DNA of 64,000 nt, taken from positions 6,083-70,082 of the forward strand of contig JACRLY010000021.1 of assembly GCA_016219595.1 (NCBI GenBank), in the 5' to 3' direction. A program made the translations under genes and the position numbers. The notes under the pieces are model-generated. The model was not told the origin of the DNA. It did no database searches and saw only the letters and a list, made by a program, of their open reading frames with translations. This stretch comes from Ignavibacteriota bacterium. GTDB taxonomy: Bacteria > Bacteroidota > Ignavibacteria > Kapaibacteriales > UBA2268. This document shows, one piece after another, positions 10,728 through 61,229 of this stretch (positions within the stretch are counted from its first letter, which is position 1; the number at the start of each line of letters is the position of its first letter).

Positions 10728-10760
10728 AGACACCTCCAAAAATTTATATGTAAAGAACTT

Positions 10761-12950: not shown

Positions 12951-13074
12951 ATAATCTCCATAAAAAATTGTTAAACTTTTATTTATATTTAAATAATTGC
13001 ATTCACTACTAATAAATTCAAACTTCCAATTTCCTTAATTTATTTGTAAAAGTCAAACATTATTTATATTTTAT

Positions 13075-13100
13075 ATAAAAAAAGGGGTATTACTACCCCT
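13075..13100 (-). terminator. Rho-independent terminator after 13157-15088
   Basis: AGGGGTA (13083-13089) pairs with TACCCCT (13094-13100) around a 4-nt loop. A T run follows on the minus strand. Confidence 0.65.
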
Positions 13101-13156
13101 TTTATGATTTTTATATAAAATTTCCTCCACTCATTCTATTGAGTGAAATTTTATTT

Positions 13157-18551: not shown

Positions 18552-19058
18552 TTAAATCTCAATCTCCTCCGGCTCATTCTCATTCCTCACAACTCTCCAG
18601 TCATTTTCTTCGCGGTCGAAGTTAGCTATCTTTTCAATAGGCATTCTCAGGTATTTGCCTTCACCGGTTACTGCCACTTCACCATCGGGAAGAACAATTT
18701 CACCTTTTCCTTCAAAGGATCTGCCGGTCTCTTTAGTCAACCTGCCAATGACTTTCAATTCACAATCAAGTGGTATCTGTTTTCTGTATTTCGCATTAAA
18801 CTCAAGTGTTACCCCCCAGACTTCATCTTCATGATTCATCATAATTGCCCTGCCGATTGTTTCATCCAGTATAGTAGAAGCAATTCCCCCATGCAGTCTT
18901 CCGGGATAGCTCTGGTGCATTTCTGAGGGTTTGAATATTGCAATCAGTTCCTTTGTGCTTGTTTCATAAAATGATGCTTTCAATCCAAAAGGATTCTTCA
19001 ATCCGCAGACAAAACATAGTTTTGAGTTTGGCTGTTTTCCTGATATTTTGTATTTCAT
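18552..19058 (-). CDS. Hotdog-fold thioesterase (PaaI-like)
   Basis: 168 aa. N-terminal CFVCG zinc-ribbon-like motif followed by HGGIASTILDETIGRA, typical of PaaI/4HBT-type thioesterases. Confidence 0.65.
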   Translation of the reverse strand: MKYKISGKQPNSKLCFVCGLKNPFGLKASFYETSTKELIAIFKPSEMHQSYPGRLHGGIASTILDETIGRAIMMNHEDEVWGVTLEFNAKYRKQIPLDCELKVIGRLTKETGRSFEGKGEIVLPDGEVAVTGEGKYLRMPIEKIANFDREENDWRVVRNENEPEEIEI

Positions 19059-19103
19059 AGTTTCTATTAATTTTGGAAATCAAATAAATATAAAATAATA
19101 AAT

Positions 19104-19133
19104 AAAACCCACGATCTTCATCGTGGGTTTTAT
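19104..19133 (-). terminator. Rho-independent terminator after dnaK
   Basis: CCCACGA (19108-19114) pairs with TCGTGGG (19121-19127). T-rich flanks on both strands, so it is potentially bidirectional. Confidence 0.75.
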
Positions 19134-19168
19134 TATCAATCTCAATTTTATTTTAGATTATTTTTCGA

Positions 19169-21121
19169 TTACTTCTCATCCACAATTGTATAATCTGCTT
19201 CCTCGACATTGCCGGTTGAGCTTGTCTGGCTCTGTTCTCCACCTGCACCTGCTTGCTGCTGTCCGCCGTCGGTTGGACCGGGTCCGGGTTCTGCTCCGGG
19301 TGGAGGCGGCTGTGAGGCACCTGCCTGCTGGTACATGTTCGTAGAAGCATCGCTCCACGCTTTGTTCAGCTCATCCATTGCGGGATGCAGGTCGCCTGTA
19401 TTATCTTTTATAGCTTTTTCGAGTCTTTCCTTAGCAGCTACAATCTTCTGCTTATATTCAGGTGCGAGCTTATCACCAAGTTCCTTCAATTGTTTATCAG
19501 TCGAATAACACAAAGTATCAGCCTGGTTCCTTATATTAATTTCTTCACGCCTCTTTGCATCATCGGCAGAGTTTGCTTGTGCATCATGTTTCATCTTCTC
19601 GACTTCCTCCTTTGATAATCCGCTCGAAGACTCAATCCTGATGTTCTGCTCTTTACCTGTTGCTTTGTCTTTAGCAGCAACTGAAAGAATGCCATTAGCA
19701 TCAATATCAAATGTTACTTCAATTTGCGGGATACCCCTCGGTGCCGGAAGAATGCTGTCGAGATAAAATCTTCCGAGTGAACGGTTATCTTTTGCCATCG
19801 GACGTTCACCTTGTAGAACATGAATTTCCACAGATGTCTGACTGTCAGTAGCTGTCGAGAATATTTCCTGCTTCCTTGTGGGAATAGTAGTATTCGCTGA
19901 AATCATCGGTGTAGTTACTCCACCAAGAGTTTCAATACCGAGTGTCAAAGGTGTTACGTCAAGTAATAGAACATCGGTTACATCGCCTGATAACACACCA
20001 CCCTGTATTGCAGCACCAACAGCTACTACTTCATCAGGATTCACACCTTTTGACGGTTCTTTTCCGAAAAAGTTCTTCACCAATTCCTGTATTTTTGGAA
20101 TACGTGTTGAACCACCGACAAGAATAACCTCATCAATCTGTGTAGGTGTTACCTTAGCATCATTTAGTGCCTGTTCGACAGGTCTCAATGTCTTATCAAA
20201 AAGGTCAGCGCAAAGGCTTTCGAATTTTGCCCTGGTTATATTTATATTAAAATGTTTCGGACCTTCTGGTGTAGCAGTTATGAATGGAAGATTCACATCA
20301 GTTTGAAGCATTTGGGAAAGTTCGGTTTTTGCTTTTTCAGCAGCTTCACGCAATCTCTGCAAAGCCATCGGGTCTTTCCTCAAATCAATGCTTTCCTGCT
20401 TTCTGAATTCATCTGCAAGAAAATCAATAAGTCTCTGGTCGAAGTTGTCACCGCCGAGATGTGTATCACCGTTTGTTGATTTGACTTCAAATACACCTTC
20501 ACCGATTTCAAGAATAGATATATCAAATGTACCGCCGCCAAGATCATAAACGGCAACGGTCATGTTTTTCCCTTTTTTGTCAAGCCCGTAGGCAAGTGCT
20601 GCAGCCGTTGGTTCATTAATAATTCTTTTAACTGTCAATCCTGCAATTTCGCCTGCATCTTTCGTTGCCTGTCTCTGTGCATCATTGAAATAAGCAGGAA
20701 CAGTAATAACGGCTTCGGTGATTTTGGTGCCAAGATAATCTTCTGCGGTTTGTTTCATTTTCTGCAATACCATAGCTGAGATTTCAGGTGATGAGTACTG
20801 CCGTCCTTCTATGTCAACCCTGACCGAATTACCATCGCTCGATGGAAGTACTTTAAAAGGTACCATCGAAATTTCCTCGGTTACCTCGCTAAGTCTTCTT
20901 CCCATGAATCGTTTAATAGAATATACTGTGTTTGTCGGATTAGTAATAGCCTGACGTTTTGCAGCCTGACCAACAAGACGTTCACCTGATTTTGTAAAAC
21001 CAATAACCGAGGGAGTAGTCCTCGCCCCTTCGCTGTTTGCTATCACAACCGGAGTCGTTCCTTCCATTACAGCTACAACCGAGTTTGTTGTCCCTAAGTC
21101 AATTCCAATTATTTTCCCCAT
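19169..21121 (-). CDS. dnaK: Molecular chaperone DnaK (Hsp70)
   Basis: 650 aa. [17 protein letters not shown] and [12 protein letters not shown] motifs. G/P/Q-rich tail ending [11 protein letters not shown]. Confidence 0.98.
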
Positions 21122-21164
21122 CTAATCACCATATTTAAAAAATTTAACAATAAAATTATTATTT

Positions 21165-21211
21165 TTCAAAAAACAAAGGACAGCAGATAAGCCTATAAGC
21201 TCCTGCTATCC
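21165..21211 (-). terminator. Terminator between hsp20 and dnaK
   Basis: On the minus strand GGATAGCAG pairs with CTGCTGTCC (9 bp including one G-U) around a 16-nt loop. TTTGTTTTTTG follows. Confidence 0.55.
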
Positions 21212-21273
21212 ATAAAAAATATCAATATCGAATAATCAAAAATAAAATTTCAATATACGTTTTTCAATTTAAT

Positions 21274-21720
21274 TTATTTAATTTCAACAGTTTTCTCTTT
21301 CGGTTTAACCGGTTCGAGCTTAGGAACCGATAAATAAAGCATTCCGTTTTCATATTTTGCTTCGATTTTATCGGCAGAAGCAATGTCAGGAAGCTGGAAT
21401 GACCTCTCAAAATCTCCAAAGGTACGTTCACTCCTGCAGCAGACTTTTATATCGTTCTTTTTCTCGAACTTCTTCTCGCCTTTTATCGTGAGAATGTTAT
21501 CCTCGTCAACCGAAACTTTTACTTCATCCTTTTTTACACCGGGAACTTCAATATCAAAATATATATTCTTTTCATCTTCCTGTATATCGACTCTTGGTTT
21601 AAATCCCCCAAATTCAACTCTTGGTCTTGTTTCCGGGTTAGATACTGTCTTAAACATTTTATCAAACTCTTTTGTCAAATTTTCGAATTCCCACCAGGGA
21701 TTAAATTTTACAAATGCCAT
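21274..21720 (-). CDS. Hsp20/alpha-crystallin family small heat-shock protein
   Basis: PRVDIQEDEKNIYFDIEVPGVKKDEVKVSV...AKYENGMLYLSVPK. Start set to the ATG of MAFVKF, which follows SD GGAGGT. Confidence 0.9.
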   Translation of the reverse strand: MAFVKFNPWWEFENLTKEFDKMFKTVSNPETRPRVEFGGFKPRVDIQEDEKNIYFDIEVPGVKKDEVKVSVDEDNILTIKGEKKFEKKNDIKVCCRSERTFGDFERSFQLPDIASADKIEAKYENGMLYLSVPKLEPVKPKEKTVEIK

Positions 21721-21763
21721 AGTTACCTCCATCAATATTTTAATTATTATTATTTTTTATCTT

Positions 21764-21785
21764 GGGCAGACACAATGGTCTGCCC
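21764..21785. other. Perfect 8-bp GC-rich hairpin between the two hsp20 genes
   Basis: GGGCAGAC (21764-21771) pairs with GTCTGCCC (21778-21785). No T tract follows on the transcribed (minus) strand. Confidence 0.5.
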
Positions 21786-21822
21786 TTACATTTTGCATTT
21801 TTAATTATCAATTGTCAATTTA

Positions 21823-22260
21823 TTATGCAATCTTTACTTCAATTTCTTTAGGTTTTGGCGGCTCAATCTTTTTCAAACTCAATTCCAAAACACCATTCTC
21901 AAATTTTGCATTAATGTTTTCTACATCAATATAATCGGGTAGAGAAAAACTACGTGTGAAACTTCCAAAATTTCTTTCAGTCCTGATTAAACTCTTGTCT
22001 TCTTTCTTCTCTTCCTTCTTTTTCTCGCCCTGTATGGTCAGAAGCCTGTCCTCGTTAACCGAAACCTTTACCTGGTCTTTTGCCAGTCCGGGAAGTTCGG
22101 CATGGACAAATAAATTGTTGTCATCTTCTGTAATGTCAACTCTCGGGTTGAATGCTCCCATTTCGAAACTAAACCCTTTTTCGAAATCGTTCATAAAGTG
22201 GTCGAATTTGCGGCTTAATCTTTCAAAGCTTCTGTATGGTTCAAATCTGACTAATGTCAT
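21823..22260 (-). CDS. Hsp20/alpha-crystallin family small heat-shock protein
   Basis: PRVDITEDDNNLFVHAELPGLAKDQVKVSV...AKFENGVLELSLKK. SD AAGGAG. Confidence 0.9.
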   Translation of the reverse strand: MTLVRFEPYRSFERLSRKFDHFMNDFEKGFSFEMGAFNPRVDITEDDNNLFVHAELPGLAKDQVKVSVNEDRLLTIQGEKKKEEKKEDKSLIRTERNFGSFTRSFSLPDYIDVENINAKFENGVLELSLKKIEPPKPKEIEVKIA

Positions 22261-22461: not shown

Positions 22462-22561
22462 CATTGATTAAATTATTGCTCTTTCTGTTATCAATCAAGT
22501 GTAAAATTGCAAGTATTGGATGGTATAAGAAATTTTGGGCACTGAAATTCGAGTTAAATGC
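22451..22561 (-). pseudogene. C-terminal relic of a YgbA-like (nitrous-oxide-stimulated-promoter family) gene
   Basis: The minus-strand frame gives SNFSAQNFLYHPILAILHLIDN. The intact paralog at 27095-27439 reads MRFSGPKMLIYHPIHAILHLIDN. A stop lies immediately upstream. DNA identity is visible at 22487-22546 vs about 27133-27192. Confidence 0.5.
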
Positions 22562-22960: not shown

Positions 22961-25036
22961 ATGTATTACAGTAAATTAATTCAAAAAATATTTATTTGTG
23001 CCTTTTCCAACTTTGAAAAAAAAGACTATTTCAAATTATTTCTAATCTTTTTGAGTATTATTATTACAAACCAAAGTATTTATTCTCAAATTTCAGATGA
23101 CTCAACAAAATACTATGAATCACTAATAAAGATGCTCGAGAGTAAAATAGACATTGATTCAAAATATGAAAAAACAGCCTCTAAATATATACAATCGGTC
23201 TTAGATGCACCTGCTTCTGTTTCGGTAATAACTTCTGATGATATTGAAAGGTATGGATATAAAACAGTAGCTGAAGCCTTAAACAGTGTAAGAAGTTTTT
23301 ATATTAGAAACGATAGAAATTATGAATATGCAGGAGTTCGCGGCATTGAACTTCCCGCTACATATAACAGTCTAATATTAATGCTATTAGATGGACATAT
23401 AATGAATGATAATATTTATTGGGCACCTTTTATAGGCAATGATTTTTCACTGAATATGAATCTAATTGACAGAATTGAAATAATAAGAGGACCTGGTGCT
23501 GTATTATATGGGACAAGTGCGGTAACTGCAGTAATTAATATAATTACTAAAAGCGGTAACACATTGGATGGATTAAATATTTTGGGAGGTACTGGTAGTT
23601 ATCGTAACCGTAAAGCTTGTATTAATTATGGAAATACTATTTCTGACATAATAGATTTAAGTATTTCTGCCCAATACGGTCATTCGAAGGGTAGGGATTT
23701 GTATTTCAAAGAGTATGATGCAGATTCAACAAATCATGGATGGGCTGAAGGAATTGATGGGGAAGAATATTATGGAGTTTATTCATCATTAAAATATAAA
23801 AATTTAAAACTAACAGGTTTTTATTCTATTCGAGAAAAAGAAATACCTACTGCTGCCTGGGAAATGACTTTTAATAAATTATCAAAGAGTACCGATATCA
23901 GGAGTTTCCTGGAAATAAAATATGAAACTTCAATTTCAAAGGATTTCAATTTTTCTTCGAGAATTTTCTATGATAATTATAAATATAAAGGATATTTTCC
24001 GTATGAACTGGAACAATATGAAATAGACAATGGAAATTGGTTAGGTGGAGAGTTTGAATTTATTTGGGATATATTTTCAGATAACAGGCTTACTTTGGGA
24101 GGGCAGGCAAAACGTAATTATCAAGCCAGGATATATCTGTGGGATGACTCGACAAATTTCTTTGAAGGTGATTTTCCTTACAGTTTATTTTCGGTTTATT
24201 TGCAAAATAATTTTCAGATTTTAGAAAATTTATCTGTTGGAATTAGCTTGAGAGATGAATATTTTGAACTTACAAAAAGTAATTCTTTATGTCCCCGAGC
24301 TTCAATAATATATAATCCTTCCAGCAACAGCTCTATAAAACTACTATACAATAATGCATACAGAGACCCTAATATTTATGAAATGTATTATAATGACGGC
24401 GATTTATCTGAAAGTAATCTTAATTTAAAACCAATAATAATTAATTCAATTGAAATTTTATATGAACAAAATATTGGAGATAACCTTTTAGGAACTGTAT
24501 CGTGTTTTTATAATAAAATTAATGATATTATCGAATCAGTTCTGGACTCTTCAAACAACCTTAATCAATTTAGAAATATTTCAAATGTTAATACTATAGG
24601 AATGGAATTTGAAATCCAATCCAAGTTTAAATCAGGTCTGTGGAGCTATTTGAGTTTTTCATTTCAGAGGTCAAAATATCAGGGTACTAATGAATTTGTT
24701 TTAAATTCTCCTGAATATATGCTTAAAGGAGGTATTTCTTATGGATTTTTTAATTATTTGTTTATTGGTTTAGATATTGATATTGAATCGGGTAGAAAAA
24801 CCATATATAACACTTGGACCGAACCTTTTTGTATAAATAATCTGAGCTTTTCATTTTTACCTCATTCAAATTCAGTTAATTCAGAGGAGGAGTTGATTAA
24901 CAGGCTCAATTTTACTTTTAGAGTAAATAACTTATTTGATGTTCAATATGAACTACCAGGAGGTCCCGAAAATTTACAAAATGCTTTTTTGCAAAACGGG
25001 GCAAATTTTATTTTTGAGACCTCAATAAAATTTTAG
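22961..25036 (+). CDS. TonB-dependent outer-membrane receptor (module A)
   Basis: Plug motif DAPASVSVITSDDIERYGYKTVAEALNSV, then IEIIRGPGAVLYGTSAVTAVINIITK. Long beta-barrel ending in a terminal F. Confidence 0.85.
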   Translation: MYYSKLIQKIFICAFSNFEKKDYFKLFLIFLSIIITNQSIYSQISDDSTKYYESLIKMLESKIDIDSKYEKTASKYIQSVLDAPASVSVITSDDIERYGYKTVAEALNSVRSFYIRNDRNYEYAGVRGIELPATYNSLILMLLDGHIMNDNIYWAPFIGNDFSLNMNLIDRIEIIRGPGAVLYGTSAVTAVINIITKSGNTLDGLNILGGTGSYRNRKACINYGNTISDIIDLSISAQYGHSKGRDLYFKEYDADSTNHGWAEGIDGEEYYGVYSSLKYKNLKLTGFYSIREKEIPTAAWEMTFNKLSKSTDIRSFLEIKYETSISKDFNFSSRIFYDNYKYKGYFPYELEQYEIDNGNWLGGEFEFIWDIFSDNRLTLGGQAKRNYQARIYLWDDSTNFFEGDFPYSLFSVYLQNNFQILENLSVGISLRDEYFELTKSNSLCPRASIIYNPSSNSSIKLLYNNAYRDPNIYEMYYNDGDLSESNLNLKPIIINSIEILYEQNIGDNLLGTVSCFYNKINDIIESVLDSSNNLNQFRNISNVNTIGMEFEIQSKFKSGLWSYLSFSFQRSKYQGTNEFVLNSPEYMLKGGISYGFFNYLFIGLDIDIESGRKTIYNTWTEPFCINNLSFSFLPHSNSVNSEEELINRLNFTFRVNNLFDVQYELPGGPENLQNAFLQNGANFIFETSIKF

Positions 25037-25037
25037 T

Positions 25038-25613
25038 ATGAAAAGTATATTATTAATAATCATAGCTTTAAACTTTGTGGTTCCGGAAATATCTGTGTCC
25101 CAGGAGATTTCAGTTCCTGTAATTTATCAACTTCAAATATTTAATAAGATACTTTATTCAAACCGGAATTTCAATTCAATAGACAAGAATAATATTGAAA
25201 TATGTATTATTTATCAGAAGAAATTCAGGTTATCATCCGAGCTGAAAAGCCAGGTCTTATCATTCATTGAAGAAAATAGCAGTTTCAAAGAACTTGGGAA
25301 TAAAAAAATTAATTTTAATGTTTTATCAATTGAAACTGAAAAAACACTTGACAATTTTTTAGAATCGAATAAAGTAGATATTATAATGGTTACACCTTTG
25401 AGGGCTGTTGATATTGAACAATTAGCAAAAATAACAAGGAAACATAAAGTATTAAGTTTTAGTTTTATTCCTGAATATATCGAATCCGGATTAAGTGTAG
25501 GTATCGGCTCAAAAGCGGAAAGACCTCAAATATTGATTAATTTAAAGGCTTCAAAAGAGGAAGGGGTTGATTTTAGTTCACAATTATTAAAACTGTCAAG
25601 AATTATTGAATAG
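25038..25613 (+). CDS. Periplasmic YfiR-like (DUF4154-type) protein (module A)
   Basis: Signal peptide. C-terminal GLSVGIGSKAERPQILINLKASKEEGVDFSSQLLKLSRII follows the YfiR tail pattern (G..i.f....f.iN...a...g..is..LL.lA). Starts 1 nt after the receptor stop. Confidence 0.55.
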   Translation: MKSILLIIIALNFVVPEISVSQEISVPVIYQLQIFNKILYSNRNFNSIDKNNIEICIIYQKKFRLSSELKSQVLSFIEENSSFKELGNKKINFNVLSIETEKTLDNFLESNKVDIIMVTPLRAVDIEQLAKITRKHKVLSFSFIPEYIESGLSVGIGSKAERPQILINLKASKEEGVDFSSQLLKLSRIIE

Positions 25614-25616
25614 TTT

Positions 25617-27044
25617 ATGAATTTATTGAAATCTTTAAATAGAAAATTCAAAAACCTTTCCTTCAGGAGAAAATTCGTATTCTCCTTTATTATTCCGATA
25701 TTTTTCGCATCTTTATTCATTTACTTGTATATACCTGCCAGAATTGAAACTCAGGCTCATGCATTTATTGCAGACAAAACCGAAGGGATATCCAATATGA
25801 CTTCCTATGCGATAAGTTCTGCTCTTTTCTATGAAGATAAGGAAACCATTAAAGAGTCCTTTAATATTATAAAACAGGATAAAGAAATTCTTTATGCAGT
25901 AGTGACAGATTTATCTAACGAATTAATTTTTTATTATAACCAAAAACTGGCTGAGGAAAATTGGTATAAAAATGATTTAAATAATCAGGAAGCAACAAAT
26001 ACTTCTGTTTTTAAATATAAAAAAGTAATTATTTACAATAATAACAAGGTTGGAATTTTATATCTGGGTGTATCACTTACGAATATAAACAAGCAGATAA
26101 CTGAAGTCAGAACATCAATAGCAACAATAAGCATTATATGTTTTATTATAGCTTTAATTATTGTGTATGGTATAGGTGATTATTTATCAAAGCCATTAGA
26201 GAAAATTGAAGAAACAATTGGTAAAATTTCAGACGGAGAAATTTCAAAAAGATTAGAATACAATTATAATGATGAGATTGGTCATTTTGCTAAGTCTTTC
26301 AACCAAATGCTCGATGAATTGGAGAATACTTTAACTGAACTGAAGCAAATCAATGCAGAAAAGGACAAATTCTTTTCAATTATTGCTCATGATTTGAAGT
26401 CACCATTCGCCGGATTTCTCGGTCTAACCCAAATTATGTCTGAGCAAATGCAGAACCTTTCACTGAATGAAATTCAGGATTATTCAAAAAGTCTAAAGGA
26501 GTCAGCTGCTAACCTATATAAATTATTGGAAAACCTTCTTGAATGGTCAAGGATGAAGAGAGGATTAATAAGCTTCAGCCCCGATAATATCATACTCTCG
26601 CAGTTAGTAAATCAAAACATAGAAATTATAGCTGAAAGTGCAAAGCAAAAAGAAATAACTATTACCAGTTCAATTCCAGAAGGGACTATGGCTATAGCTG
26701 ACAGTCAAATGCTGAATACAGTAATAAGGAATTTAATATCAAATGCAATAAAATTTACAAATCATAACGGAGAAATTCTAATTTCTTCTGAAAATATTGA
26801 TAATGATATGATTAAAATATCTGTTAAGGACAATGGAATCGGCATGGATGCAGTTATTTTGGGAAACCTGTTCAGAGTTGATGTAAAGGTTTCTCAAAGG
26901 GGGACTGATAATGAGCCAAGTACGGGAATTGGGCTTCTTTTATGCAAGGAATTTGTCTATAAAAACGGTGGCGAGATATGGGTCGAAAGCACTGAAGGCA
27001 AGGGCAGTACTTTCCATTTCACTGTGCCGGTTTTGAAAAATTAA
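25617..27044 (+). CDS. Sensor histidine kinase: 2 TM, periplasmic domain, HAMP, HisKA, HATPase (module A)
   Basis: HAMP (LSKPLEKIEETIGKIS...FNQMLDEL). H-box FFSIIAHDLKSPF. N/G boxes NAIKFT, DNGIGM, GIGLLLCKEF. Confidence 0.9.
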   Translation: MNLLKSLNRKFKNLSFRRKFVFSFIIPIFFASLFIYLYIPARIETQAHAFIADKTEGISNMTSYAISSALFYEDKETIKESFNIIKQDKEILYAVVTDLSNELIFYYNQKLAEENWYKNDLNNQEATNTSVFKYKKVIIYNNNKVGILYLGVSLTNINKQITEVRTSIATISIICFIIALIIVYGIGDYLSKPLEKIEETIGKISDGEISKRLEYNYNDEIGHFAKSFNQMLDELENTLTELKQINAEKDKFFSIIAHDLKSPFAGFLGLTQIMSEQMQNLSLNEIQDYSKSLKESAANLYKLLENLLEWSRMKRGLISFSPDNIILSQLVNQNIEIIAESAKQKEITITSSIPEGTMAIADSQMLNTVIRNLISNAIKFTNHNGEILISSENIDNDMIKISVKDNGIGMDAVILGNLFRVDVKVSQRGTDNEPSTGIGLLLCKEFVYKNGGEIWVESTEGKGSTFHFTVPVLKN

Positions 27045-27094
27045 TTTAAACCTCATTTTAGAAATAATAATTTACAGTTATCATAAGTAGAATA

Positions 27095-27439
27095 TTAATT
27101 CCTTATTGATTTCACCTCATTCTTTTTTATCCAGTTATCAATCAAATGTAAAATTGCATGTATTGGATGGTATATTAACATCTTTGGTCCGGAAAAACGC
27201 ATTACTTGCCGGATTTTCTCCCTCTCAACAGATTTATAGCAATGAATCGAGCAGTTTAGGCAGGTTGGTTTGTCCTCATCGAATGGGCATTTATCTAATT
27301 TCTTCATTACATAATCGAACATTCCGTCGCAATCACTGCATAGAGTCCCCCTTGAGCCATGCTCCAGCCTGCAGTATAGCTTAATCATAGCTCCAACGGT
27401 AATTTTTTCTCTCTCTATTCTGCTTTTGAAGAAAATCAT
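27095..27439 (-). CDS. YgbA-like nitrous-oxide-stimulated-promoter family protein (Cys-rich)
   Basis: 114 aa. KLYCRLEHG...LCSDC...KCPF...KPTCLNCSIHCYK is the pattern characteristic of this family. Confidence 0.7.
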   Translation of the reverse strand: MIFFKSRIEREKITVGAMIKLYCRLEHGSRGTLCSDCDGMFDYVMKKLDKCPFDEDKPTCLNCSIHCYKSVEREKIRQVMRFSGPKMLIYHPIHAILHLIDNWIKKNEVKSIRN

Positions 27440-27472
27440 TAGAATTATTTGTTAAAAATCAAATGTGAAACG
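27431..27472. repeat. 42-bp repeat copy 1 (start codon and upstream region of the YgbA-like gene)
   Basis: 37/42 identical to 33563-33604 by hand alignment. Confidence 0.8.
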
Positions 27473-27597
27473 ATAGATGATGATTAATAGTTTTATTCTA
27501 AAATCGATATATTCCCTTGTATTTTTATAACGAATTTATTATCTTTAGGAAGATGAATTTTTCCTTTTAGTGAGTAAAATATCATGAGGAAAGACTA

Positions 27598-29595
27598 ATG
27601 ATTCATAAATTTATATCTCAAATATTTTCTGCATTTGGAATAATATTCTTTTATCAAGTGTTTTTATTTTTTTTAGGGATAAACTTATCCTTTTCTCAAT
27701 CCGATAGCACAGATATTTATGATTATGATTTCAATCAATTATCAAAATTAAAAATTACTTCAGTATCAAAAACACCACAAAGATTAGTAGAAGTTCCATC
27801 AACTATTTACGTAATATCATCAGTCGAAATAAAAGAAAGAGGATACTTTACACTTGAAGATGTTTTATCTGACCTCCCCGGTTTCCAGTTCAGAAACATA
27901 CAAAGTTTCAATAGCTATTCTTTTCAAAGGGGAATACCTAATCAAAACAATTTAATTTTAGTTTTGATAGATGGTGTCCAGGTGAACGAACTCAATTCAG
28001 GTGGCTACTATGGCGGAGGGCAATACAATTTGTCAAATGTTGAACGCATTGAGGTTGTTTATGGTCCGGTATCAGTTGCTTACGGCACTAATGCAGTGTC
28101 AGGAATTATAAATATAATAACTAAGGGTACATTAGAAAAGCAAGCTGTCATCAATACTATAGTTGGTAACTTTAATACTATCAATTCAGATATAAGTTAT
28201 TGTTATACAAATAATAAGAAAAGTTTGGGAATTCGTGTTTCAGGCATGATTAAAAGTACAGAAAAAGCTGATTTAAAGGGGACAGCAGGCGATAACAACT
28301 GGTCTGACTTACTGGATAACTTTGAGAATGATTATTCTTTTGATATTAAAATTCAAGTTGACAATTTTATTTTAGGAACAAACTTTTTACAAAAGCAATC
28401 ATCGGCTGCAACTTATGTAAAGTCTACCGGAACAATTTATAAAGATTACGGAACATTATGGAATATAAGGTTTATAAATAATTACTTGAAATACAATAAT
28501 ATATTATCAGACAATCTGACATTTACATCCACTCTTTACAACCGTAATGCAACAGTACTTGATAATTCAGTAGAATATATAGTTGATACAGCTCAAATTG
28601 GATATTATCGTCCTAATAACTTAACCGGATTAGAAAATATTTTAGAATATTATATCGGTAATATTTTTTCAATTACAGGCGGTTTAACACTTGAGTATGA
28701 GCAATTAGCAGAAGCATTTACAATTACGTACAGCAAATCTCCGGAACAAAAGCCACCAACTCCACTAAGTCCTGAAATGAAAAAAAATTCTTTGATAAGC
28801 CTTTTTTTAGAACCACACATTTCTCTTTTTGAAAATATTTATATTTCCGGAGGAATTCGCTTTGATAAAAGCAGTTTTTATAATCAGGTATTAACTCCAA
28901 GTGCAGGGCTAAGTTATAACTATCAAAATCATGTAATACGTTTCTCCTATTCGGAAGCATTCAGAGCGCCTAAACCTTGGGATTATACTGATGGTCTGGG
29001 CAACAGCTCCCTGCTCCCTGAAAAAATGAAATCGATTGAAGCGGCAATTACATTATCAATAGCTGATAATTTTAAACTCGATTTAATCGGATACAGCAAC
29101 AAATTTGAAAATGCGATTACTAAACAGAGTATAGGCGAAAGTTACAAATGGATTAATGAAGGCAAAATTACAACTAATGGTTTTGAAGTTTATTTCAGGT
29201 ATTCATCGCCAAAGTTAAAATCATCAGTAAATTACACTTATAATCAAAGCCTGAATTCAAATGATGATTTTATTCCTGAAATCAGCAAACATACCGGTAA
29301 TGCAAGTTTGACTTATTCATTCACTAATAATATAATCCTGAACATTCGTGCTAATTATATAGGAGAAAGAGAAAATACTAAAGTTATTGCTACAACCAAT
29401 AGTAATATGATTGAACCATGTTTGATATTCCATGCAGTTTTATCATTCTTAAATTACGAAGGATTTAATTTACAATTAATTGGCAAAAACATATTAAACA
29501 AAGAATATTATCATACTTCCAACAGACCCCCTGACAGGTACCGGCAATCTCAGCGAACCATTATGCTATCAGTTGGTTATTCATTAAACAATTAG
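27598..29595 (+). CDS. TonB-dependent outer-membrane receptor (module B)
   Basis: Plug motif EVPSTIYVISSVEIKERGYFTLEDVLSDLPG, then IEVVYGPVSVAYGTNAVSGIINIITK. SD AGGAAAG. Confidence 0.85.
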   Translation: MIHKFISQIFSAFGIIFFYQVFLFFLGINLSFSQSDSTDIYDYDFNQLSKLKITSVSKTPQRLVEVPSTIYVISSVEIKERGYFTLEDVLSDLPGFQFRNIQSFNSYSFQRGIPNQNNLILVLIDGVQVNELNSGGYYGGGQYNLSNVERIEVVYGPVSVAYGTNAVSGIINIITKGTLEKQAVINTIVGNFNTINSDISYCYTNNKKSLGIRVSGMIKSTEKADLKGTAGDNNWSDLLDNFENDYSFDIKIQVDNFILGTNFLQKQSSAATYVKSTGTIYKDYGTLWNIRFINNYLKYNNILSDNLTFTSTLYNRNATVLDNSVEYIVDTAQIGYYRPNNLTGLENILEYYIGNIFSITGGLTLEYEQLAEAFTITYSKSPEQKPPTPLSPEMKKNSLISLFLEPHISLFENIYISGGIRFDKSSFYNQVLTPSAGLSYNYQNHVIRFSYSEAFRAPKPWDYTDGLGNSSLLPEKMKSIEAAITLSIADNFKLDLIGYSNKFENAITKQSIGESYKWINEGKITTNGFEVYFRYSSPKLKSSVNYTYNQSLNSNDDFIPEISKHTGNASLTYSFTNNIILNIRANYIGERENTKVIATTNSNMIEPCLIFHAVLSFLNYEGFNLQLIGKNILNKEYYHTSNRPPDRYRQSQRTIMLSVGYSLNN

Positions 29596-29604
29596 ACAAA
29601 GAAT

Positions 29605-31425
29605 ATGAAAATATTAATTAAAATATTATTAGTCACAATACTAATTTGTTTAATCACTTTCAGGTCATTCGGACAAACAGACAAAGCAAAGGTTATCGCA
29701 GCATATATTAATAACTTTGCCAGGTTTATCACCTGGCCGAATGAAAATCAGTTAGATAGCTTCAGAATTGGTATTTTTACAAATAATATTGATTTAATCA
29801 AAGAGTTTGATGATTATTCAAAAAAACGAAGAATAAAAGAAAAGCCAATCAGTCTGACAATATTTAAAACGTACCCTTCGCATTTCAATTTTCAAATTTT
29901 AATGCTGTCCGAAGATAATTCAAATTACATTACCCAAATTTATGATGCTATAGAGGGAAAATCAACATTACTTATAAGTGAAAATTATAAGGACCAACGC
30001 AACATAATGATTAATTTTATTAAAACTTCACAGGAGCAACTTTCTTTTGAGGTTAATAAAGCTAACGTGATAAATCAAAAACTTTCAATAGACCCTGAAA
30101 TTTTACTTTCAGGTGGAACGGAAATTGATGTTGCAAGCCTTTACCGGAAATCGCAATTTAACCTGAGAAATATGCAAAAAAACATGGATATAATGAGCGA
30201 TTCACTTAAAAACCTTCAGGAGTATATCAATACATCAATAGATTTGATAAATAAACAACAATCTGCAATAACAAGACAGAAGAATTTATTAGAAGAACAA
30301 ATAGCAAAAATCAATAAAGACCAGGAAATAATTCAGTCTCAAAGAGGGATACTGGGTTCACAGCAAGATTCCATAAATATTAAAAACCGTGTACTTCTTA
30401 AAATGTTGAATGATGTAAAAAAGCATCAAAGTGAGCTGGAATATCAGGAACAAATATTAAGAACCAATCAAAAACAGATTGAAGTTTTGAACAAAGAAAT
30501 AAAAAACAAAAACATTACATTAGGGAGTCAATCCGAAACCATTGTACGACAAAAACAGATGTTATTATTTTCTATAATTATCGGTTTTCTTATAATTTTA
30601 TTAGTTACAGCAATTTATATCGGTTATCGAAAAAATAAACATAAAAGCCAAATCTTGGCAAGTCAAAAACGAGAAATCGGAAGAAAATTAAATGAGGTGG
30701 AAAAATTAAATTTACAGCTTAAAAATGCCGACCAATACAAATCCATATTTTTAGCAAGCATGAGCCACGAACTCCGTACCCCATTAAATTCCATAATCGG
30801 ATATACCGGAATACTGCTTATGGGTATGACGGGAAAGTTAAGCGATGAACAAAACAAACAATTATCTAAGATAAAAAACAATGCTAAACACTTATTAAGC
30901 TTAATCAACGATATACTTGATATATCAAAAATTGAAGCGGACAGGGTCGAATTACACATCGAAGAATTTAAATTAAAAGATATGATTAATCAGGTTGTTG
31001 AAATAATAAATCCAAAAGTAATTGAGAAACAGCTTGAATTGACAATTGATTTAAAAGATGATTTGACAATTTCTACTGATGAAAGAAGAATTAAACAAGT
31101 GGTATTGAACCTTGTCAGCAATGCTGTAAATTATTCCGAAACAGGTATTATACATATTAGTTCGAAGAGATTGTCAGACAACAAATTCAGAATATCCGTG
31201 AAAGACACTGGGATCGGGATTTCAGAAGATGACATGCTGAGATTGTTTCAACCGTTCCAGCAAATTGATTCTTCACTTACCAAAAAAACTAGCGGGACCG
31301 GATTAGGATTATACTTATGCAGAAAAATATTGAAGATGCTGGGTGGAGATATTTTTGTAAAAAGCGAGCTGGGTAAGGGAAGTGAATTTTATATTGAAAT
31401 GCCTATTAAATACAAAAAGGATTAA
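29605..31425 (+). CDS. Fusion protein: periplasmic YfiR-like domain, coiled coil, TM, HisKA/HATPase histidine kinase (module B)
   Basis: Signal peptide. KAKVIAAYINNFARFITWPNE...FRIGIFT...STLLISE...LSFEVNKANVINQKLSIDPEILLSG is YfiR-like. Long Q/N-rich coiled coil. TM LLFSIIIGFLIILLVTAIYIGY. H-box FLASMSHELRTPLNSI. G-box GTGLGLYLCRKI. Confidence 0.75.
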   Translation: MKILIKILLVTILICLITFRSFGQTDKAKVIAAYINNFARFITWPNENQLDSFRIGIFTNNIDLIKEFDDYSKKRRIKEKPISLTIFKTYPSHFNFQILMLSEDNSNYITQIYDAIEGKSTLLISENYKDQRNIMINFIKTSQEQLSFEVNKANVINQKLSIDPEILLSGGTEIDVASLYRKSQFNLRNMQKNMDIMSDSLKNLQEYINTSIDLINKQQSAITRQKNLLEEQIAKINKDQEIIQSQRGILGSQQDSINIKNRVLLKMLNDVKKHQSELEYQEQILRTNQKQIEVLNKEIKNKNITLGSQSETIVRQKQMLLFSIIIGFLIILLVTAIYIGYRKNKHKSQILASQKREIGRKLNEVEKLNLQLKNADQYKSIFLASMSHELRTPLNSIIGYTGILLMGMTGKLSDEQNKQLSKIKNNAKHLLSLINDILDISKIEADRVELHIEEFKLKDMINQVVEIINPKVIEKQLELTIDLKDDLTISTDERRIKQVVLNLVSNAVNYSETGIIHISSKRLSDNKFRISVKDTGIGISEDDMLRLFQPFQQIDSSLTKKTSGTGLGLYLCRKILKMLGGDIFVKSELGKGSEFYIEMPIKYKKD

Positions 31426-31428
31426 ATT

Positions 31429-31788
31429 ATGAAACGTGTATTGATTATTGAAGATAACGCAGATAATATGTATCTAATGAAGTTCATATTGGAAGCAAAC
31501 AATATAAATGTAATTATGGCTACTACAGGTTTAGAGGGTATTGAAACAGCATTGAAAGAAAAACCGGATTTAATCCTTATGGATATTCAATTGCCTGATA
31601 TAAATGGATTAGAGGTTACAAAGAGAATCAGAGAGTCTGATATTAGTAATTCGATTCCAATTTTAGCAGTATCTTCTTATGCCATGACGGGTGATAAACA
31701 AAAAGCACTCGATGCTGGATGCAACGGTTATATAGAAAAACCTATAGAACCTGAAACAATTATGGATAAAATAAACAAATTCCTATAA
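31429..31788 (+). CDS. Single-domain response regulator (CheY-like receiver)
   Basis: VLIIEDN...DLILMDIQLPDINGLE...AVSSYAM...GYIEKP. Confidence 0.9.
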   Translation: MKRVLIIEDNADNMYLMKFILEANNINVIMATTGLEGIETALKEKPDLILMDIQLPDINGLEVTKRIRESDISNSIPILAVSSYAMTGDKQKALDAGCNGYIEKPIEPETIMDKINKFL

Positions 31789-31831
31789 CATACAAATTTT
31801 TTATAATCAATTTTAAGCTTAGGATATTTAT

Positions 31832-33094
31832 ATGAAAATACTAATAGTGGATGATAATCCTGACAATTTGGATATGTTGGAAATTGTTCTCAAAAGCCAG
31901 GATCATATTGTACATTCAGCTATCAACGGCAAGGAAGCACTCGAAAAGCTCCACACAGAAAAGTATGATTTGATTGTATCCGACATTTTAATGCCGGTTA
32001 TGGATGGTTTTCAGCTTTGCAGGGAGTGCAGGAAAGAGGATGAATTAAAAGATATTTGTTTCATTTTCTATACTGCTACTTATATTGACAACAAAGATGA
32101 GGATTTTGCCAAATCATTAGGTGCTCACGAATTTATTCGCAAACCGCAGGAACCGGAAATTCTTATAAAAATTATTAATGATGTTTATGAAAAATCTAAA
32201 ACCACTCCCCTGGTTTTTGAAGAACATAGTGATAAGGAGATTCTTAAACTTTACAATGAGAGATTAGTTTCCAAATTGGAAAAGAAAAATATTGATTTGG
32301 AAAAGGAAATCAATGCACATAAAAGAACTGTTAAAGATTTAATTATATCTAAGAATAAAGCAGAAGAAATGAACCGTCTAAAATCGAATTTTCTTGCGAA
32401 CATGAGTCATGAATTAAGAACTCCGATGAATGGTATTATTGGATTTTCACAGATTTTAAAAGATGATAATAATCTCGATAGTGTAAAGGAAATTGCAGAA
32501 TTGATATATAAAAGCAGTAAAAGACTGATGGAAACTTTAAATTCAATCCTTGACCTGTCGAGACTTGCTTCCGGTGAAGTGATACCAAAGCTGTCTTTCG
32601 TCAATTTGTTGCAGATATTAAATGAGATTATTGTACTTAATAGGAATTCCGCAAGAAATAAACAATTAGAATTAAAGTTAGATACTACACTCGATAATCT
32701 ATCCTTTAATTGCGACTCAAGATTTATCTGGGAAATAATGAATAATCTGATTAATAATGCAATTAAATTTACTGATAATGGTAGTATCAGCATCAAAGTT
32801 GACACAACATTGGTAAATAAGGAAAAATATGCTGTAATTGATATTATAGATACCGGTATTGGCATTGAAGAAAGTCAATACAATGTCATTTTCGATGAAT
32901 TCCGGCAAGTAAGTGAAGGATTGAGCAGGAGCTTTGAAGGTACCGGGCTGGGTTTGACTATAAGCAAAAAATATGTGGAGTTACTTGGGGGCATATTAAA
33001 AGTGAAAAGTAAACTCAACGAGGGTTCTACATTTACTATACTATTGCCATTATCTGGATACAAAGGACCTTCAGTTAAAGGTAATCAAGAATAA
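31832..33094 (+). CDS. Hybrid receiver-histidine kinase (REC, coiled coil, HisKA, HATPase)
   Basis: N-terminal REC (ILIVDDNPDN...DLIVSDILMPVMDG). H-box FLANMSHELRTPMNGI. G-box GTGLGLTISKKY. Confidence 0.9.
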   Translation: MKILIVDDNPDNLDMLEIVLKSQDHIVHSAINGKEALEKLHTEKYDLIVSDILMPVMDGFQLCRECRKEDELKDICFIFYTATYIDNKDEDFAKSLGAHEFIRKPQEPEILIKIINDVYEKSKTTPLVFEEHSDKEILKLYNERLVSKLEKKNIDLEKEINAHKRTVKDLIISKNKAEEMNRLKSNFLANMSHELRTPMNGIIGFSQILKDDNNLDSVKEIAELIYKSSKRLMETLNSILDLSRLASGEVIPKLSFVNLLQILNEIIVLNRNSARNKQLELKLDTTLDNLSFNCDSRFIWEIMNNLINNAIKFTDNGSISIKVDTTLVNKEKYAVIDIIDTGIGIEESQYNVIFDEFRQVSEGLSRSFEGTGLGLTISKKYVELLGGILKVKSKLNEGSTFTILLPLSGYKGPSVKGNQE

Positions 33095-33105
33095 AAAAAA
33101 AAATT

Positions 33106-33516
33106 GTGGATGGGAAACTGATTAATACTAAAGATAGTGAATCTAAAGTACTATATGTGGAAGATGATGAGATTAGTATTCTCCTTTTTGAACGGCTTTT
33201 CAAGGATAAGCTAATAATTGATTTTGCAAGAAATGCTGAGGAAGCAATTCAAAAAGCAACTGAAATCCAGTATTCGTTAATAATGATGGATATTAATCTT
33301 GGAAAAGGAAATGATGGGATTTATGTTACAAATGAGTTAAGGAAATTTGAAAATTATAAAAATATTCCGATTATAGCTGTTACTGCATTTGCTATGCTCG
33401 GTGATAAAGAAGATTTTATCAGCAAAGGATGTACTGATTATATATCTAAACCTTATGATACTGGAGCTTTATTCAAACTAATTAGTAAATATACTAATGT
33501 TGTGTGGTATTATTAA
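33106..33516 (+). CDS. Single-domain response regulator (receiver), GTG start
   Basis: LYVEDDEISI...LIMMDINLGKGNDG...AVTAFAMLGD...DYISKP. Paralogous to the C-terminal REC of 35579-38518. Confidence 0.8.
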   Translation: MDGKLINTKDSESKVLYVEDDEISILLFERLFKDKLIIDFARNAEEAIQKATEIQYSLIMMDINLGKGNDGIYVTNELRKFENYKNIPIIAVTAFAMLGDKEDFISKGCTDYISKPYDTGALFKLISKYTNVVWYY

Positions 33517-55218: not shown

Positions 55219-55295
55219 AAATAACCATCAAAATTTTTAGATTAACATATAATTTAAATAATCCAAAATATTCAAATTTGTTTCATTAATTATTT

Positions 55296-57707: not shown

Positions 57708-57743
57708 AATGAATCCTCTAATATATTATTATCATTTAATTTC

Positions 57744-60170: not shown

Positions 60171-60579
60171 AGCAATCACCCATGAAGATTTAGAAAATAT
60201 ATATATTTAATTATTAATTTCTAATTAAAATCTTTCTTGTGTCAGCCCTATTATAGTAATAACAAAAAAAAAGGGAAAATGTTTCAGTGCATTACTGATT
60301 TTTTATTTGTTTGGATTATTGAATTTCCTTTTTTTAGGATTTTAAATCCGATAAAATAATTGAAGATTAAATGGGTTTAACATCATAATATGAAATAAGA
60401 CATAATAATCCTGAAACAAATCGTTCAAATTAGGATTTATTTAATAAGGAAGCATAGAGTACTCTTAGAAATAAAAAATACTGAAGTTAATTAATAACTG
60501 AAGAAAATATGAAACTTTTTTTTAAAGTAATCGTTCTTTATTATGTAACATATTTTGTATTTGAAGGGAGGATAAAAAT

Positions 60580-61119
60580 ATGCCGCGAATGAATTTTCCA
60601 TCGGTTTTCTGGTCAATGGCTTTTATAGTGATTTTATTTTCTTATATCATTTCCGGTTGTGAAAAAAACAGCATTTCCAATGTTGGCAAACCGACTGGAG
60701 CTTTGGTGCAATACTCTGAGTGCAAAAATACAATTGTCGGCAAGACCGAAATTGATATAACATCGAACAATCTTGATTGCATAGAGTATAGCTATGATGT
60801 AAAATCAAATAGTTTGATTTTAAAGCACATTAATGCCGGATTCAATTGCTGCCCGGGTAAAATCACTGCCGATATTTCAATTAACAGCGATGCAATAATT
60901 ATCAATGAAAAGGAACAGGAAGCAGGCTGCCATTGCAATTGTTTATTTGATATTGATTATAAAATTGAAAATCTTATTTCCAGGTCGTTCAAAATCGTAA
61001 TAGTCGAGCCCTATCGTCCAGTCGAAGAAGATGTATTAGAGTTCAATATTGATTTGAATGTTAATCCATCAGGTAAGTTTTGCGTAGAACGCAATAACTA
61101 CCCGTGGAATATTAAGTAA
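60580..61119 (+). CDS. Cys-rich hypothetical lipoprotein
   Basis: Lipobox IISGC. Cysteines at CKNT, CIEY, NCCPG, GCHCNC, FCVE. Strong SD GGGAGGA. Confidence 0.65.
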   Translation: MPRMNFPSVFWSMAFIVILFSYIISGCEKNSISNVGKPTGALVQYSECKNTIVGKTEIDITSNNLDCIEYSYDVKSNSLILKHINAGFNCCPGKITADISINSDAIIINEKEQEAGCHCNCLFDIDYKIENLISRSFKIVIVEPYRPVEEDVLEFNIDLNVNPSGKFCVERNNYPWNIK

Positions 61120-61229
61120 TTTACAATTTTTCATTACAAATAATAACTAGTATGAAGAAAGCTTCTGAATATCAGCAAATAAAAATTATTTGGAAGCTCT
61201 GTTCGGAGAATTAAACCCACAATGTGGGA

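Follow-up and report, generated by a model that had tools for sequence, protein, structure and literature searches.

Tandem operons joining TonB-dependent receptors, YfiR-like domains and histidine kinases in an Ignavibacteriota genome: a candidate system for signalling from the outer membrane

TonB-dependent receptors (TBDRs) that signal are known to do so through an N-terminal STN domain, which acts on a pair consisting of an anti-sigma factor and an extracytoplasmic function (ECF) sigma factor. A stretch of 64,000 nucleotides from an Ignavibacteriota bacterium (GenBank assembly GCA_016219595.1, contig JACRLY010000021.1, positions 6,083 to 70,082; this whole stretch is referred to as the window) raises the question of whether such receptors can also be wired to histidine kinases. 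The window carries two tandem operons, module A (22961-27044) and module B (27598-33516), each beginning with a TBDR gene. A first-pass annotation had read module A as a TBDR, a free periplasmic YfiR-like protein and a kinase with two transmembrane (TM) helices, a periplasmic domain and HAMP, and module B as a TBDR and a protein in which a YfiR-like domain is joined through a coiled coil and one TM helix to a kinase; the arrangement had been likened to the YfiBNR system. Our results indicate that the modules represent a real, widespread and uncharacterised signalling system built from known parts, and one that probably passes signals inward, from outer membrane to cytoplasm.

The open reading frames (ORFs) were found where they had been annotated, all on the forward strand, with gaps of 1-9 nt: 1 nt (25036/25038) and 3 nt (25613/25617) in module A, and 9 nt (29595/29605) between the receptor and fusion genes of module B. 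The end of module B had been placed at 31425, with the fusion kinase. Genes for a receiver (REC), a REC-kinase and a second REC, however, continue on the same strand (31429-33516), with gaps of 3, 43 and 11 nt from the fusion kinase onwards. The two receptors, TBDR-A and TBDR-B, are the only TBDRs of the window, and each adjoins a DUF4154 gene. Every ORF in 22961-33516 could be accounted for and none was OmpA-like; the outer-membrane component of each module is a TBDR. Pfam searches identified no GGDEF domain in either module, the outputs being HisKA and HATPase_c, and no DNA-binding response regulator in either operon; sigma and anti-sigma genes were likewise absent from the two operons in the ORF list and the Pfam results. 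Scans for promoters and terminators gave no useful signal against the AT-rich background (82 sites against 71.5 expected).

The YfiR-like assignments were examined with the Pfam model DUF4154 ('YfiR/HmsC-like', PF13689), as had been recommended with the annotation, and both proteins gave significant scores, 41.3 bits for the free protein and 79.8 bits for the fusion against a cut-off of 24.9. In the free protein the match spans the C-terminal two-thirds (aa 80-188). This protein contains one Cys, and starts with a hydrophobic, signal-like segment without a lipobox Cys; the hydrophobic segments of the two DUF4154 proteins lie at aa 3-21 and 1-19. Throughout, a simple hydropathy scan rather than a dedicated predictor was used to assign signal peptides and TM helices. 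Kinase A, the third component of module A, has HAMP (41.8 bits), HisKA (36.5 bits) and HATPase (82.7 bits) domains and the H-box AHDLKSP, and its two TM helices (21-39 and 168-186) bracket a periplasmic domain of 128 residues. Pfam and hydropathy thus agreed with the composition annotated for module A. The periplasmic domain matched CHASE8, the family to which the periplasmic domain of YfiN, the site of action of YfiR, is now assigned (PMC8085984). This match strengthened the analogy with YfiBNR.

The module A trio is kept elsewhere (L088, L091/L092 and L089/L090; L numbers designate loci). In three relatives of kinase A with 38-69% identity, a protein of about 191-199 aa is encoded directly upstream, and a TBDR gene lies before it where the contig reaches that far. 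The small protein of L089, 71% identical to the free YfiR-like protein of the window and in the same position, scored 37.6 bits with DUF4154, and those of L088 and L091 (32-33% identical to the window protein) remained below threshold at 19-24 bits. In L047 and L037, a free DUF4154 protein (112-130 bits) is encoded between a TBDR and a CHASE8-HAMP signalling protein, the CHASE8 score in L037 being 41.9 bits; L047, from a Melioribacteraceae metagenome-assembled genome, repeats the entire A+B tandem. We also noticed an ECF-type sigma factor gene (Sigma70_r2/r4) in L091/L092 (1-567), about 2.6 kb upstream of the module A-like TBDR with two unannotated genes between them; it is probably unrelated to the receptor.

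Concerning novelty, it had been noted that no experimentally characterised example was known, and our searches of the open-access literature likewise found no published TBDR-YfiR/DUF4154-kinase system. The pairing itself, however, is already present in NCBIfam, as the models NF053590 ('TOL_0244 family TonB-dependent receptor') and NF053591 ('TOL_0243 family YfiR-like periplasmic protein'). Curators have thus recognised module A-type pairs of TBDR and YfiR-like protein, the models being names without a function. The free YfiR-like proteins of L047 and L037 scored 110.8 and 120.3 bits on NF053591 (cut-off 125). The scores of the window proteins were far lower, 96.0 and 122.1 bits for the two receptors against a cut-off of 645 for NF053590, and 21.5 bits for the free protein against 125. 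Judged by these scores, the window proteins appear to be related to the TOL_0244/TOL_0243 families but not to be members of them.

The fusion protein of module B was confirmed in each of its parts. Besides DUF4154, Pfam recognised HisKA (73.2 bits) and HATPase (100.1 bits) domains, with the H-box SHELRTP, and hydropathy indicated a signal-like segment at 1-23 and a single TM helix. An AlphaFold2 model built on a 41-sequence alignment had a mean predicted local distance difference test (pLDDT) score of 80, with the YfiR-like domain folded into seven strands and five to six helices at a pLDDT of about 90, a composition that agrees with the published description of YfiR (PMC4655355). When the full-length model was searched with Foldseek, the kinase cores alone were returned (GacS, HK853 and RetS, with E values down to 6e-23). 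A profile of the fused domain searched against the PDB gave YfiR chains as the top four matches. In the corresponding profile alignment, which is marginal, the invariant motif F-E-x-N-x-x-N-[IV] falls on F162-E163-A-N165...I169 of YfiR. In YfiR, E163 and I169 touch YfiB and form part of the site proposed for YfiN (PMC4887326); this second correspondence also lent weight to the YfiBNR analogy.

The fused form is abundant. An exhaustive HMMER search with the fused domain identified 2159 cluster representatives (50% identity) at E<=1e-3, and nearly all of the top 150 matches are proteins of 500-1700 aa with the domain at the N terminus. A word-indexed search with the isolated DUF4154 domain returned no match although the parent protein was in the database, a limit of sensitivity of that search. 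NCBI names the full-length relatives 'YfiR/HmsC family protein' or 'DUF4154 domain-containing protein', and the stalk-bearing fused form lies outside the NCBIfam TOL_0244/TOL_0243 models. The downstream relay genes are also retained, with a REC gene following the fusion kinase in L001, L002, L003 and L007, and a REC-HK(-REC) gene holding the same position as in the window in L001, L002, L003, L005 and L007 (HK, histidine kinase); in L001 and L002, the final REC is joined to the C terminus of the second kinase. The part consisting of DUF4154, stalk and TM helix is found joined to various outputs, including PAS/GAF kinases, hybrid kinases and a SpoIIE phosphatase, and can therefore be regarded as a modular input device that has been reused. 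The SpoIIE (PP2C-type) phosphatase takes the place of the kinase in L065 (602-2557). In L025 (7878-11905), a DUF4154-PAS ORF stops within PocR (profile positions 1-80) and the next ORF resumes at 80-162, followed by PAS-HK, which is probably a frameshift or assembly error dividing one gene.

Conserved co-occurrence of TBDR, DUF4154 and kinase genes had been named as a further check, and it was confirmed in both directions and across phyla. Seven relatives of the fusion with identities from 60% down to 28%, which include PAS-, GAF- and REC-bearing variants as well as proteins from a Gallionella and a Sedimenticola, all have an adjacent TBDR gene (Plug/barrel), immediately upstream in six cases and divergent in one. 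We then scored 80 loci from species-representative genomes with hidden Markov models (HMMs) made from Pfam-verified seeds. These loci cover at least seven phylum-level groups and derive from Bacteroidales, Prolixibacteraceae, Cyclobacteriaceae, Bacteroides, Ignavibacteriota, Cellvibrionaceae, other Gammaproteobacteria, Gallionellaceae, Elusimicrobia, Fibrobacterota and Lentisphaeraceae. A TBDR gene directly adjoins the fused-domain gene in 64 of the 80 loci (80%), upstream on the same strand in 38, downstream on the same strand in 24 (Cellvibrionaceae) and divergently in 2. In 4 further cases a TBDR lies at another place in the locus, 10 loci have none within about 8 kb, and in 2 the position could not be determined. 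As a background, only 2 of 158 distal ORFs of at least 300 aa (1.3%) are TBDRs. After collapsing related loci, an adjacent TBDR was present in 35 of 48 clusters at 70% identity and in 12 of 21 at 50%. Pfam analysis of the neighbouring genes indicated that the receptor-less exceptions are genuine. In Cellvibrionaceae (L019, L028, L030, L032 and about 20 other loci) the DUF4154-HK-REC hybrid comes first and the TBDR second, so that the pairing survives a change in gene order.

The reverse scan started from the receptor. With receptor alignment A6, 80 relatives of TBDR-B with 39-68% identity were collected from metagenomes, and the 68 with at least 500 nt of downstream sequence were counted. DUF4154 genes adjoin 64 of these receptors (60 by rule and 4 on inspection), 2 further receptors end the same operon in the layout of L015 described below, and only 2 have no DUF4154 gene. 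With 66 of 68 sharing an operon with DUF4154, the TBDR-B clade is in essence reserved for DUF4154 partners. In both directions the loci were sampled with narrow peptide patterns, and the matches retained were those most similar to the window proteins; alignments of 21 domain and 12 receptor sequences were too diverse for scanning, and the narrower alignments A2 and A6 sample narrower subfamilies. The neighbourhood HMMs were home-made from 3-21 seeds, and neither the linkage counts nor the stalk statistics given below are corrected for phylogeny. Two unusual arrangements were encountered: two tandem pairs of TBDR and free DUF4154 followed by one kinase in L149 (1112-7573), and DUF4154-HK, REC and REC-HK genes with two tandem TBDRs closing the operon in L015 (7923-15723), L161 and L162.

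The long segment between the YfiR-like domain and the membrane was then examined. In the AlphaFold2 model it forms one uninterrupted helix (residues 176-339, pLDDT 83-92). Among 221 long homologues, 219 have exactly one TM helix after the domain by hydropathy, at a median distance of 155 residues (interquartile range 149-159). The stalks contain 0.03 proline each, with none in that of the window, and are rich in Q, E, L, K and I. Their hydrophobic periodicity has a power of 1.5-1.7 at periods of 3.5 and 7, and of 0.1-0.2 at others, and conserved hydrophobic positions at 38, 45, 52, 59, 73, 115, 122 and 129 past the domain fall in one heptad register. Stalk length is held although sequence identity is only 25% and alignment is difficult. 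Among 257 non-identical proteins, the lengths from the GTEID motif to the TM helix peak at 141 (20 proteins), 148 (54), 155 (45), 162 (8) and 169 (3), steps of seven residues, and a smaller series at 144/151/158 is offset by half a heptad; the chi-square test of length modulo 7 gave p = 3e-80, relatedness being ignored. The 158 class corresponds to Cellvibrionaceae, and the steps 141/148/155 occur within Bacteroidota/Ignavibacteriota. A hairpin, considered from a dip in heptad score at aa 231-258 of the window protein (with G248 and G251), was set aside as the main reading on account of the continuous register, the single predicted helix and the absence of any conserved mid-stalk Gly or Pro in the stalk alignment.

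The rise of a coiled coil is 0.148 nm per residue, at which 141-162 residues correspond to 21-24 nm and the 148 residues of the window stalk to about 22 nm. The periplasm of E. coli is about 20-25 nm wide. The distance from the outer membrane to the peptidoglycan is about 5 nm, and the peptidoglycan is about 7 nm thick (PMC4887326). From its length of about 22 nm and these dimensions of the periplasm and wall, we estimate that the stalk roughly matches the width of the periplasm and would take a YfiR-like dimer across the wall as far as the inner face of the outer membrane. A dependence of envelope signalling on the fit between protein length and periplasm width has been described for RcsF-IgaA (PMC5736177). 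The conserved, stepped length favours a tip near the outer membrane over a sensor of freely diffusing ligand.

What kind of receptors are paired with these sensors? TBDR-A matched Plug (62.3 bits) and TonB_dep_Rec_b-barrel (PF00593, 91.1 bits). TBDR-B matched Plug at 66 bits, its barrel being recognised through NCBIfam models of the BtuB/CirA type and the sequence of the CirA structure; the nearest solved structures are CirA and BtuB, and the best NCBIfam match is the TOL_0244 family at 122 bits, far short of the cut-off of 645. In a sequence alignment, KLKITSV of TBDR-B falls on the TonB box ETMVVTA of CirA, and a strand-like pattern I-x-I-x-x-A-S-K is conserved among the partnered receptors. 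With an intact Plug and a TonB-box-like strand, the receptors look like working transporters. Both had been annotated as lacking an N-terminal signalling extension. This is correct for the STN domain, for which Pfam gave no match in either receptor, Plug beginning at aa 64 and 80 with the signal peptide included. A short conserved stretch is nevertheless present in both, a segment of about 20 residues (D-S-x-D-x-Y-x-L-S-L-x-E-L-S-x-L; aa 44-62 of TBDR-A and 34-52 of TBDR-B) that precedes the TonB-box position and has no counterpart in CirA or BtuB. By analogy with the N-terminal segment of YfiB, this segment could serve the YfiR-like domain as a docking site. The idea that YxLSLxEL is a partner-specific peptide of this kind was set aside and kept as a lead only, the motif being present also in the two clade members without a DUF4154 neighbour (L110 and L139).

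TBDR-A and TBDR-B are about 23% identical. In a rough neighbour-joining tree without bootstrap, TBDR-A groups with the receptors preceding free YfiR-like genes (L088/L091), apart from TBDR-B. Taking into account this low identity and the different tree groups, modules A and B appear to be old paralogous types and not the result of a recent duplication. Such a recent tandem duplication had come under consideration owing to a 56-nt direct repeat (84% identity) at 22472-22527 and 27119-27174, and was ruled out for the coding parts by the same identity and the separate clades. The second copy of the repeat falls at the 3' end of the reverse-strand YgbA_NO gene that separates the modules, and the first is non-coding and lies upstream of module A; it may be the remnant of a second ygbA-like gene, each module having once been preceded by one.

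We consider it somewhat likely that both modules are trans-envelope devices, in which a dedicated outer-membrane TBDR works with a YfiR-like domain that sets the activity of an inner-membrane kinase. In module A, the free YfiR-like protein would bind the CHASE8 domain of kinase A and hold the kinase in one state, and the role of YfiB, capture or release of this protein at the outer membrane, would fall to the receptor. The YfiR-like protein would thus shuttle between kinase and receptor, as YfiR does between YfiN and YfiB, with phosphorylation as the output instead of cyclic di-GMP. In module B, a YfiR-like dimer would cap a rigid coiled coil, continuous over about 148 residues and 22 nm, which would keep the dimer by the periplasmic face of the outer membrane and within reach of the plug and TonB-box region of the receptor. 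A change in the receptor, whether ligand binding, TonB engagement or substrate release, would alter the tip, and the alteration would be transmitted through the coiled coil and the one TM helix to the DHp domain, from which phosphate would pass to the REC, REC-kinase and REC encoded downstream. The domain content, the topology pattern, the linkage in both directions and the coiled coil with its stepped length are direct observations. From the conserved stalk length of about 22 nm we infer that the relay from receptor to kinase proceeds by protein contact; likewise inferred are any physical association of the receptor with the YfiR-like domain, the way in which regulation runs, and the ligand and eventual output. 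A more far-reaching formulation, which we put forward tentatively, is that this is a third route of TBDR signalling, apart from the sigma/anti-sigma route and from import followed by sensing, in which a YfiR-like domain, kept at the outer membrane by a rigid, periplasm-spanning, heptad-phased coiled coil, directly reads the periplasmic face of the receptor and mechanically drives the kinase, modules A and B being fission and fusion variants.

The main alternative is that the receptor is an ordinary transporter, and that the YfiR-like domain binds the imported substrate in the periplasm and switches the kinase. The fold of the YfiR-like domain would resemble half a periplasmic binding protein, and the genes would be linked since sensing needs uptake. 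The intact Plug and TonB-box-like strand of both receptors agree with this, as do the receptor-less loci, which retain the same sensor architecture. YfiR has a central seven-stranded sheet and resembles type I periplasmic ligand-binding domains (PMC4655355), and vitamin B6 and L-Trp are ligands of its YfiB-binding site (PMC4887326). There is also a precedent in PfeA/PfeS, where import of enterobactin is required for activation of the kinase (PMC8001512). On the other hand, the affinity of YfiR for these small molecules is only in the ten-millimolar range (PMC4887326), and the conserved motif of the fused domain maps onto the protein-contact surface of YfiR. A sensor of diffusible ligand has no obvious need of a rigid stalk of about 22 nm with a whole-heptad length across phyla, and the free YfiR-like protein and CHASE8 kinase of module A form the arrangement of a partner switch between proteins. 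Import followed by sensing is thus, in our view, rather unlikely, but an explanation to be taken seriously. A hybrid is possible, in which the stalk sets the domain beneath the receptor and substrate is handed over directly.

The linkage could also be regulatory only, the kinase pathway controlling its own operon and the stalked domain sensing something else near the outer membrane, for example peptidoglycan or the state of the envelope, independently of the receptor. Two-component genes often adjoin the transporter genes that they regulate, as in PfeRS/PirRS, 10 of the 80 loci have no receptor nearby, and canonical YfiBNR answers envelope stress through a peptidoglycan-binding partner (PMC4887326). 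Heat-shock genes lie just upstream of module A (18552-22260, reverse strand), with DnaK at 19169-21121 and two Hsp20 genes at 21274-21735 and 21823-22260, weak and circumstantial support for such a role. Against this, neither operon encodes a DNA-binding response regulator, the receptor appears in the rough tree to have diverged together with its partner type, free or fused, and the pairing outlasts inversion of gene order and domain fission/fusion, a behaviour more typical of the subunits of one machine. The rate of 97% (66/68) at which clade receptors share one operon with DUF4154, together with the gaps of 1-9 nt, makes a purely regulatory linkage less likely, and we regard it as improbable. 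Still far less credible is that the pairing, or DUF4154 itself, reflects chance adjacency or mis-annotation. Although the match in the free protein covers aa 80-188 and two module A relatives stay below the Pfam cut-off, scores of 41 and 80 bits against 24.9, an adjacency of 80% against a background of 1.3%, rates of 94-97% in the reverse direction and a distribution over at least seven phylum-level groups already refute it.

Several observations weigh against a trans-envelope device itself. The margin of kinase A over the CHASE8 cut-off is only 1.5 bits (28.5 against 27), and the free YfiR-like protein is a divergent subtype in which ILIN replaces the FExN motif. In the fused domain, the matches to YfiR chains have E values of about 0.1 and are marginal, and the disulfides of YfiR (Cys71-Cys110 and Cys145-Cys152) are not kept, the domain being without Cys. 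The periplasm width of about 20-25 nm is an E. coli value that may not hold for Ignavibacteriota. The forward sample derives from one peptide pattern ranked by similarity to the window proteins, and hence represents one subfamily with many Cellvibrio species. Finally, the 10 loci without a TBDR within about 8 kb have the same stalk length. An adjacent receptor is therefore not strictly required, and in these cases the partner could be encoded elsewhere or be something different.

TBDRs abound in Bacteroidota and among degraders of polysaccharides, for example Cellvibrio and Teredinibacter, and the fused-domain family is spread over Bacteroidota, Ignavibacteriota, Cellvibrionaceae, Gallionellaceae and others. 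If the trans-envelope device proves true, a second widespread wiring, from TBDR to two-component phosphorelay, would exist, and receptor repertoires would be read differently. The partner-switch idea of YfiBNR would extend past cyclic di-GMP and lipoprotein partners. The heptad-stepped stalk offers a handle on how signals cross a periplasm of about 20 nm, and could serve as a molecular ruler of envelope width in uncultured phyla. Carriers in culture include Cellvibrio mixtus J3-8, C. fibrivorans BE190, Labilibacter sediminis CG51, Pseudomaricurvus hydrocarbonicus and Teredinibacter, which makes the hypothesis directly testable.

The positions of the features in the window are collected in Table 1. 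The protein encoded between the modules belongs to the YgbA_NO ('nitrous oxide-stimulated promoter') family and is Cys-rich, and its gene showed no tie to the modules in other loci. A hybrid kinase of 979 aa (35579-38518, forward strand; weak dCache, PAS, HisKA, HATPase and REC) is encoded 2 kb downstream of the module B operon, past two convergent genes. Elsewhere in the window, three Omp28-domain paralogues of 712, 729 and 643 aa are encoded in tandem at 8601-15088 (reverse strand), and four large proteins with C-terminal sorting domains of the type IX secretion system (Por_Secre_tail), two of them with BNR/sortilin-like repeats, at 53191-63350 (reverse strand).

Table 1. Features of modules A and B and of the gene between them (window positions).
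Feature	Position	Strand	Evidence
TBDR-A, TonB-dependent receptor of module A, 691 aa	22961..25036	+	Pfam Plug + barrel
Free periplasmic YfiR-like protein of module A, 191 aa	25038..25613	+	Pfam DUF4154
Kinase A, TM-CHASE8-TM-HAMP-HisKA-HATPase, 475 aa	25617..27044	+	Pfam + hydropathy
YgbA_NO gene between modules A and B, 114 aa	27095..27439	-	140 bits
TBDR-B, TonB-dependent receptor of module B, 665 aa	27598..29595	+	Pfam Plug
Fusion sensor kinase, signal peptide-YfiR-like-coiled coil-1TM-HisKA-HATPase, 606 aa	29605..31425	+	Pfam, hydropathy, AlphaFold2
Fusion, YfiR-like (DUF4154) domain, aa 29-167	29689..30105	+	Pfam, AlphaFold2
Fusion, periplasmic coiled-coil stalk, aa 171-318 (148 residues from GTEID motif to TM)	30115..30558	+	AlphaFold2, heptads
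Fusion, single TM helix, aa 319-341	30559..30627	+	Hydropathy peak 3.03
Fusion, cytoplasmic kinase core, HisKA aa 379-445 (H388), HATPase aa 491-601	30739..31407	+	Pfam, Foldseek
Stand-alone receiver (REC), 119 aa	31429..31788	+	Pfam Response_reg 99.5 bits
Second kinase, REC-HisKA-HATPase, 420 aa	31832..33094	+	Pfam
Second stand-alone receiver, 136 aa, GTG start	33106..33516	+	Response_reg 68.2 bits

How do the modules compare with known systems? YfiBNR (TpbB/HmsCDE; Pseudomonas aeruginosa, E. coli, Yersinia) likewise has a periplasmic YfiR/DUF4154 protein and a third, outer-membrane component in the same operon, and module A shares with it an inner-membrane effector with two TM helices, CHASE8 and HAMP. 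The FExN...I surface motif of the fused domain corresponds, in the sequence alignment, to the YfiR residues that touch both partners. However, the outer-membrane partner in YfiBNR is the OmpA/Pal-like lipoprotein YfiB and the output a GGDEF cyclase, whereas here they are a 22-strand TBDR and a histidine kinase. In module B, the YfiR-like domain is moreover tethered to the kinase by the coiled coil of about 148 residues; with this covalent tether, the sequestration mechanism cannot apply literally. The TonB-dependent transducers (FecA-FecR-FecI and FpvA) resemble the modules in that an outer-membrane receptor is genetically coupled to a signalling protein of the cytoplasmic membrane, and in the proposed logic by which the state of the receptor is reported to the cytoplasm. 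Their N-terminal STN domain of about 80 residues, anti-sigma factor and ECF sigma factor are absent here, and the relay would instead consist of a YfiR-like domain and a histidine kinase phosphorelay. Taking into account that the window system has neither the GGDEF output and YfiB of the one nor the STN domain and ECF sigma factor of the other, it is a member neither of YfiBNR nor of cell-surface signalling.

PfeA-PfeS/PfeR and PirA-PirS/PirR of Pseudomonas aeruginosa are similar in that a TBDR is functionally tied to a two-component sensor kinase. Their kinases, however, detect the siderophore in the periplasm after its import, through a sensor domain of the ordinary kind, and have neither a YfiR-like domain nor a periplasm-spanning stalk, and their receptor gene is a regulatory target that is not translationally coupled to the sensor. 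With the Rcs system (RcsF-IgaA), the modules would share the need for an outer-membrane-anchored component to reach a partner in the inner membrane, and the matching of length to the periplasm. The proteins are unrelated, and reach in Rcs is provided from the outer-membrane side by a disordered lipoprotein linker, whereas in module B it would be provided from the inner membrane by a rigid coiled coil.

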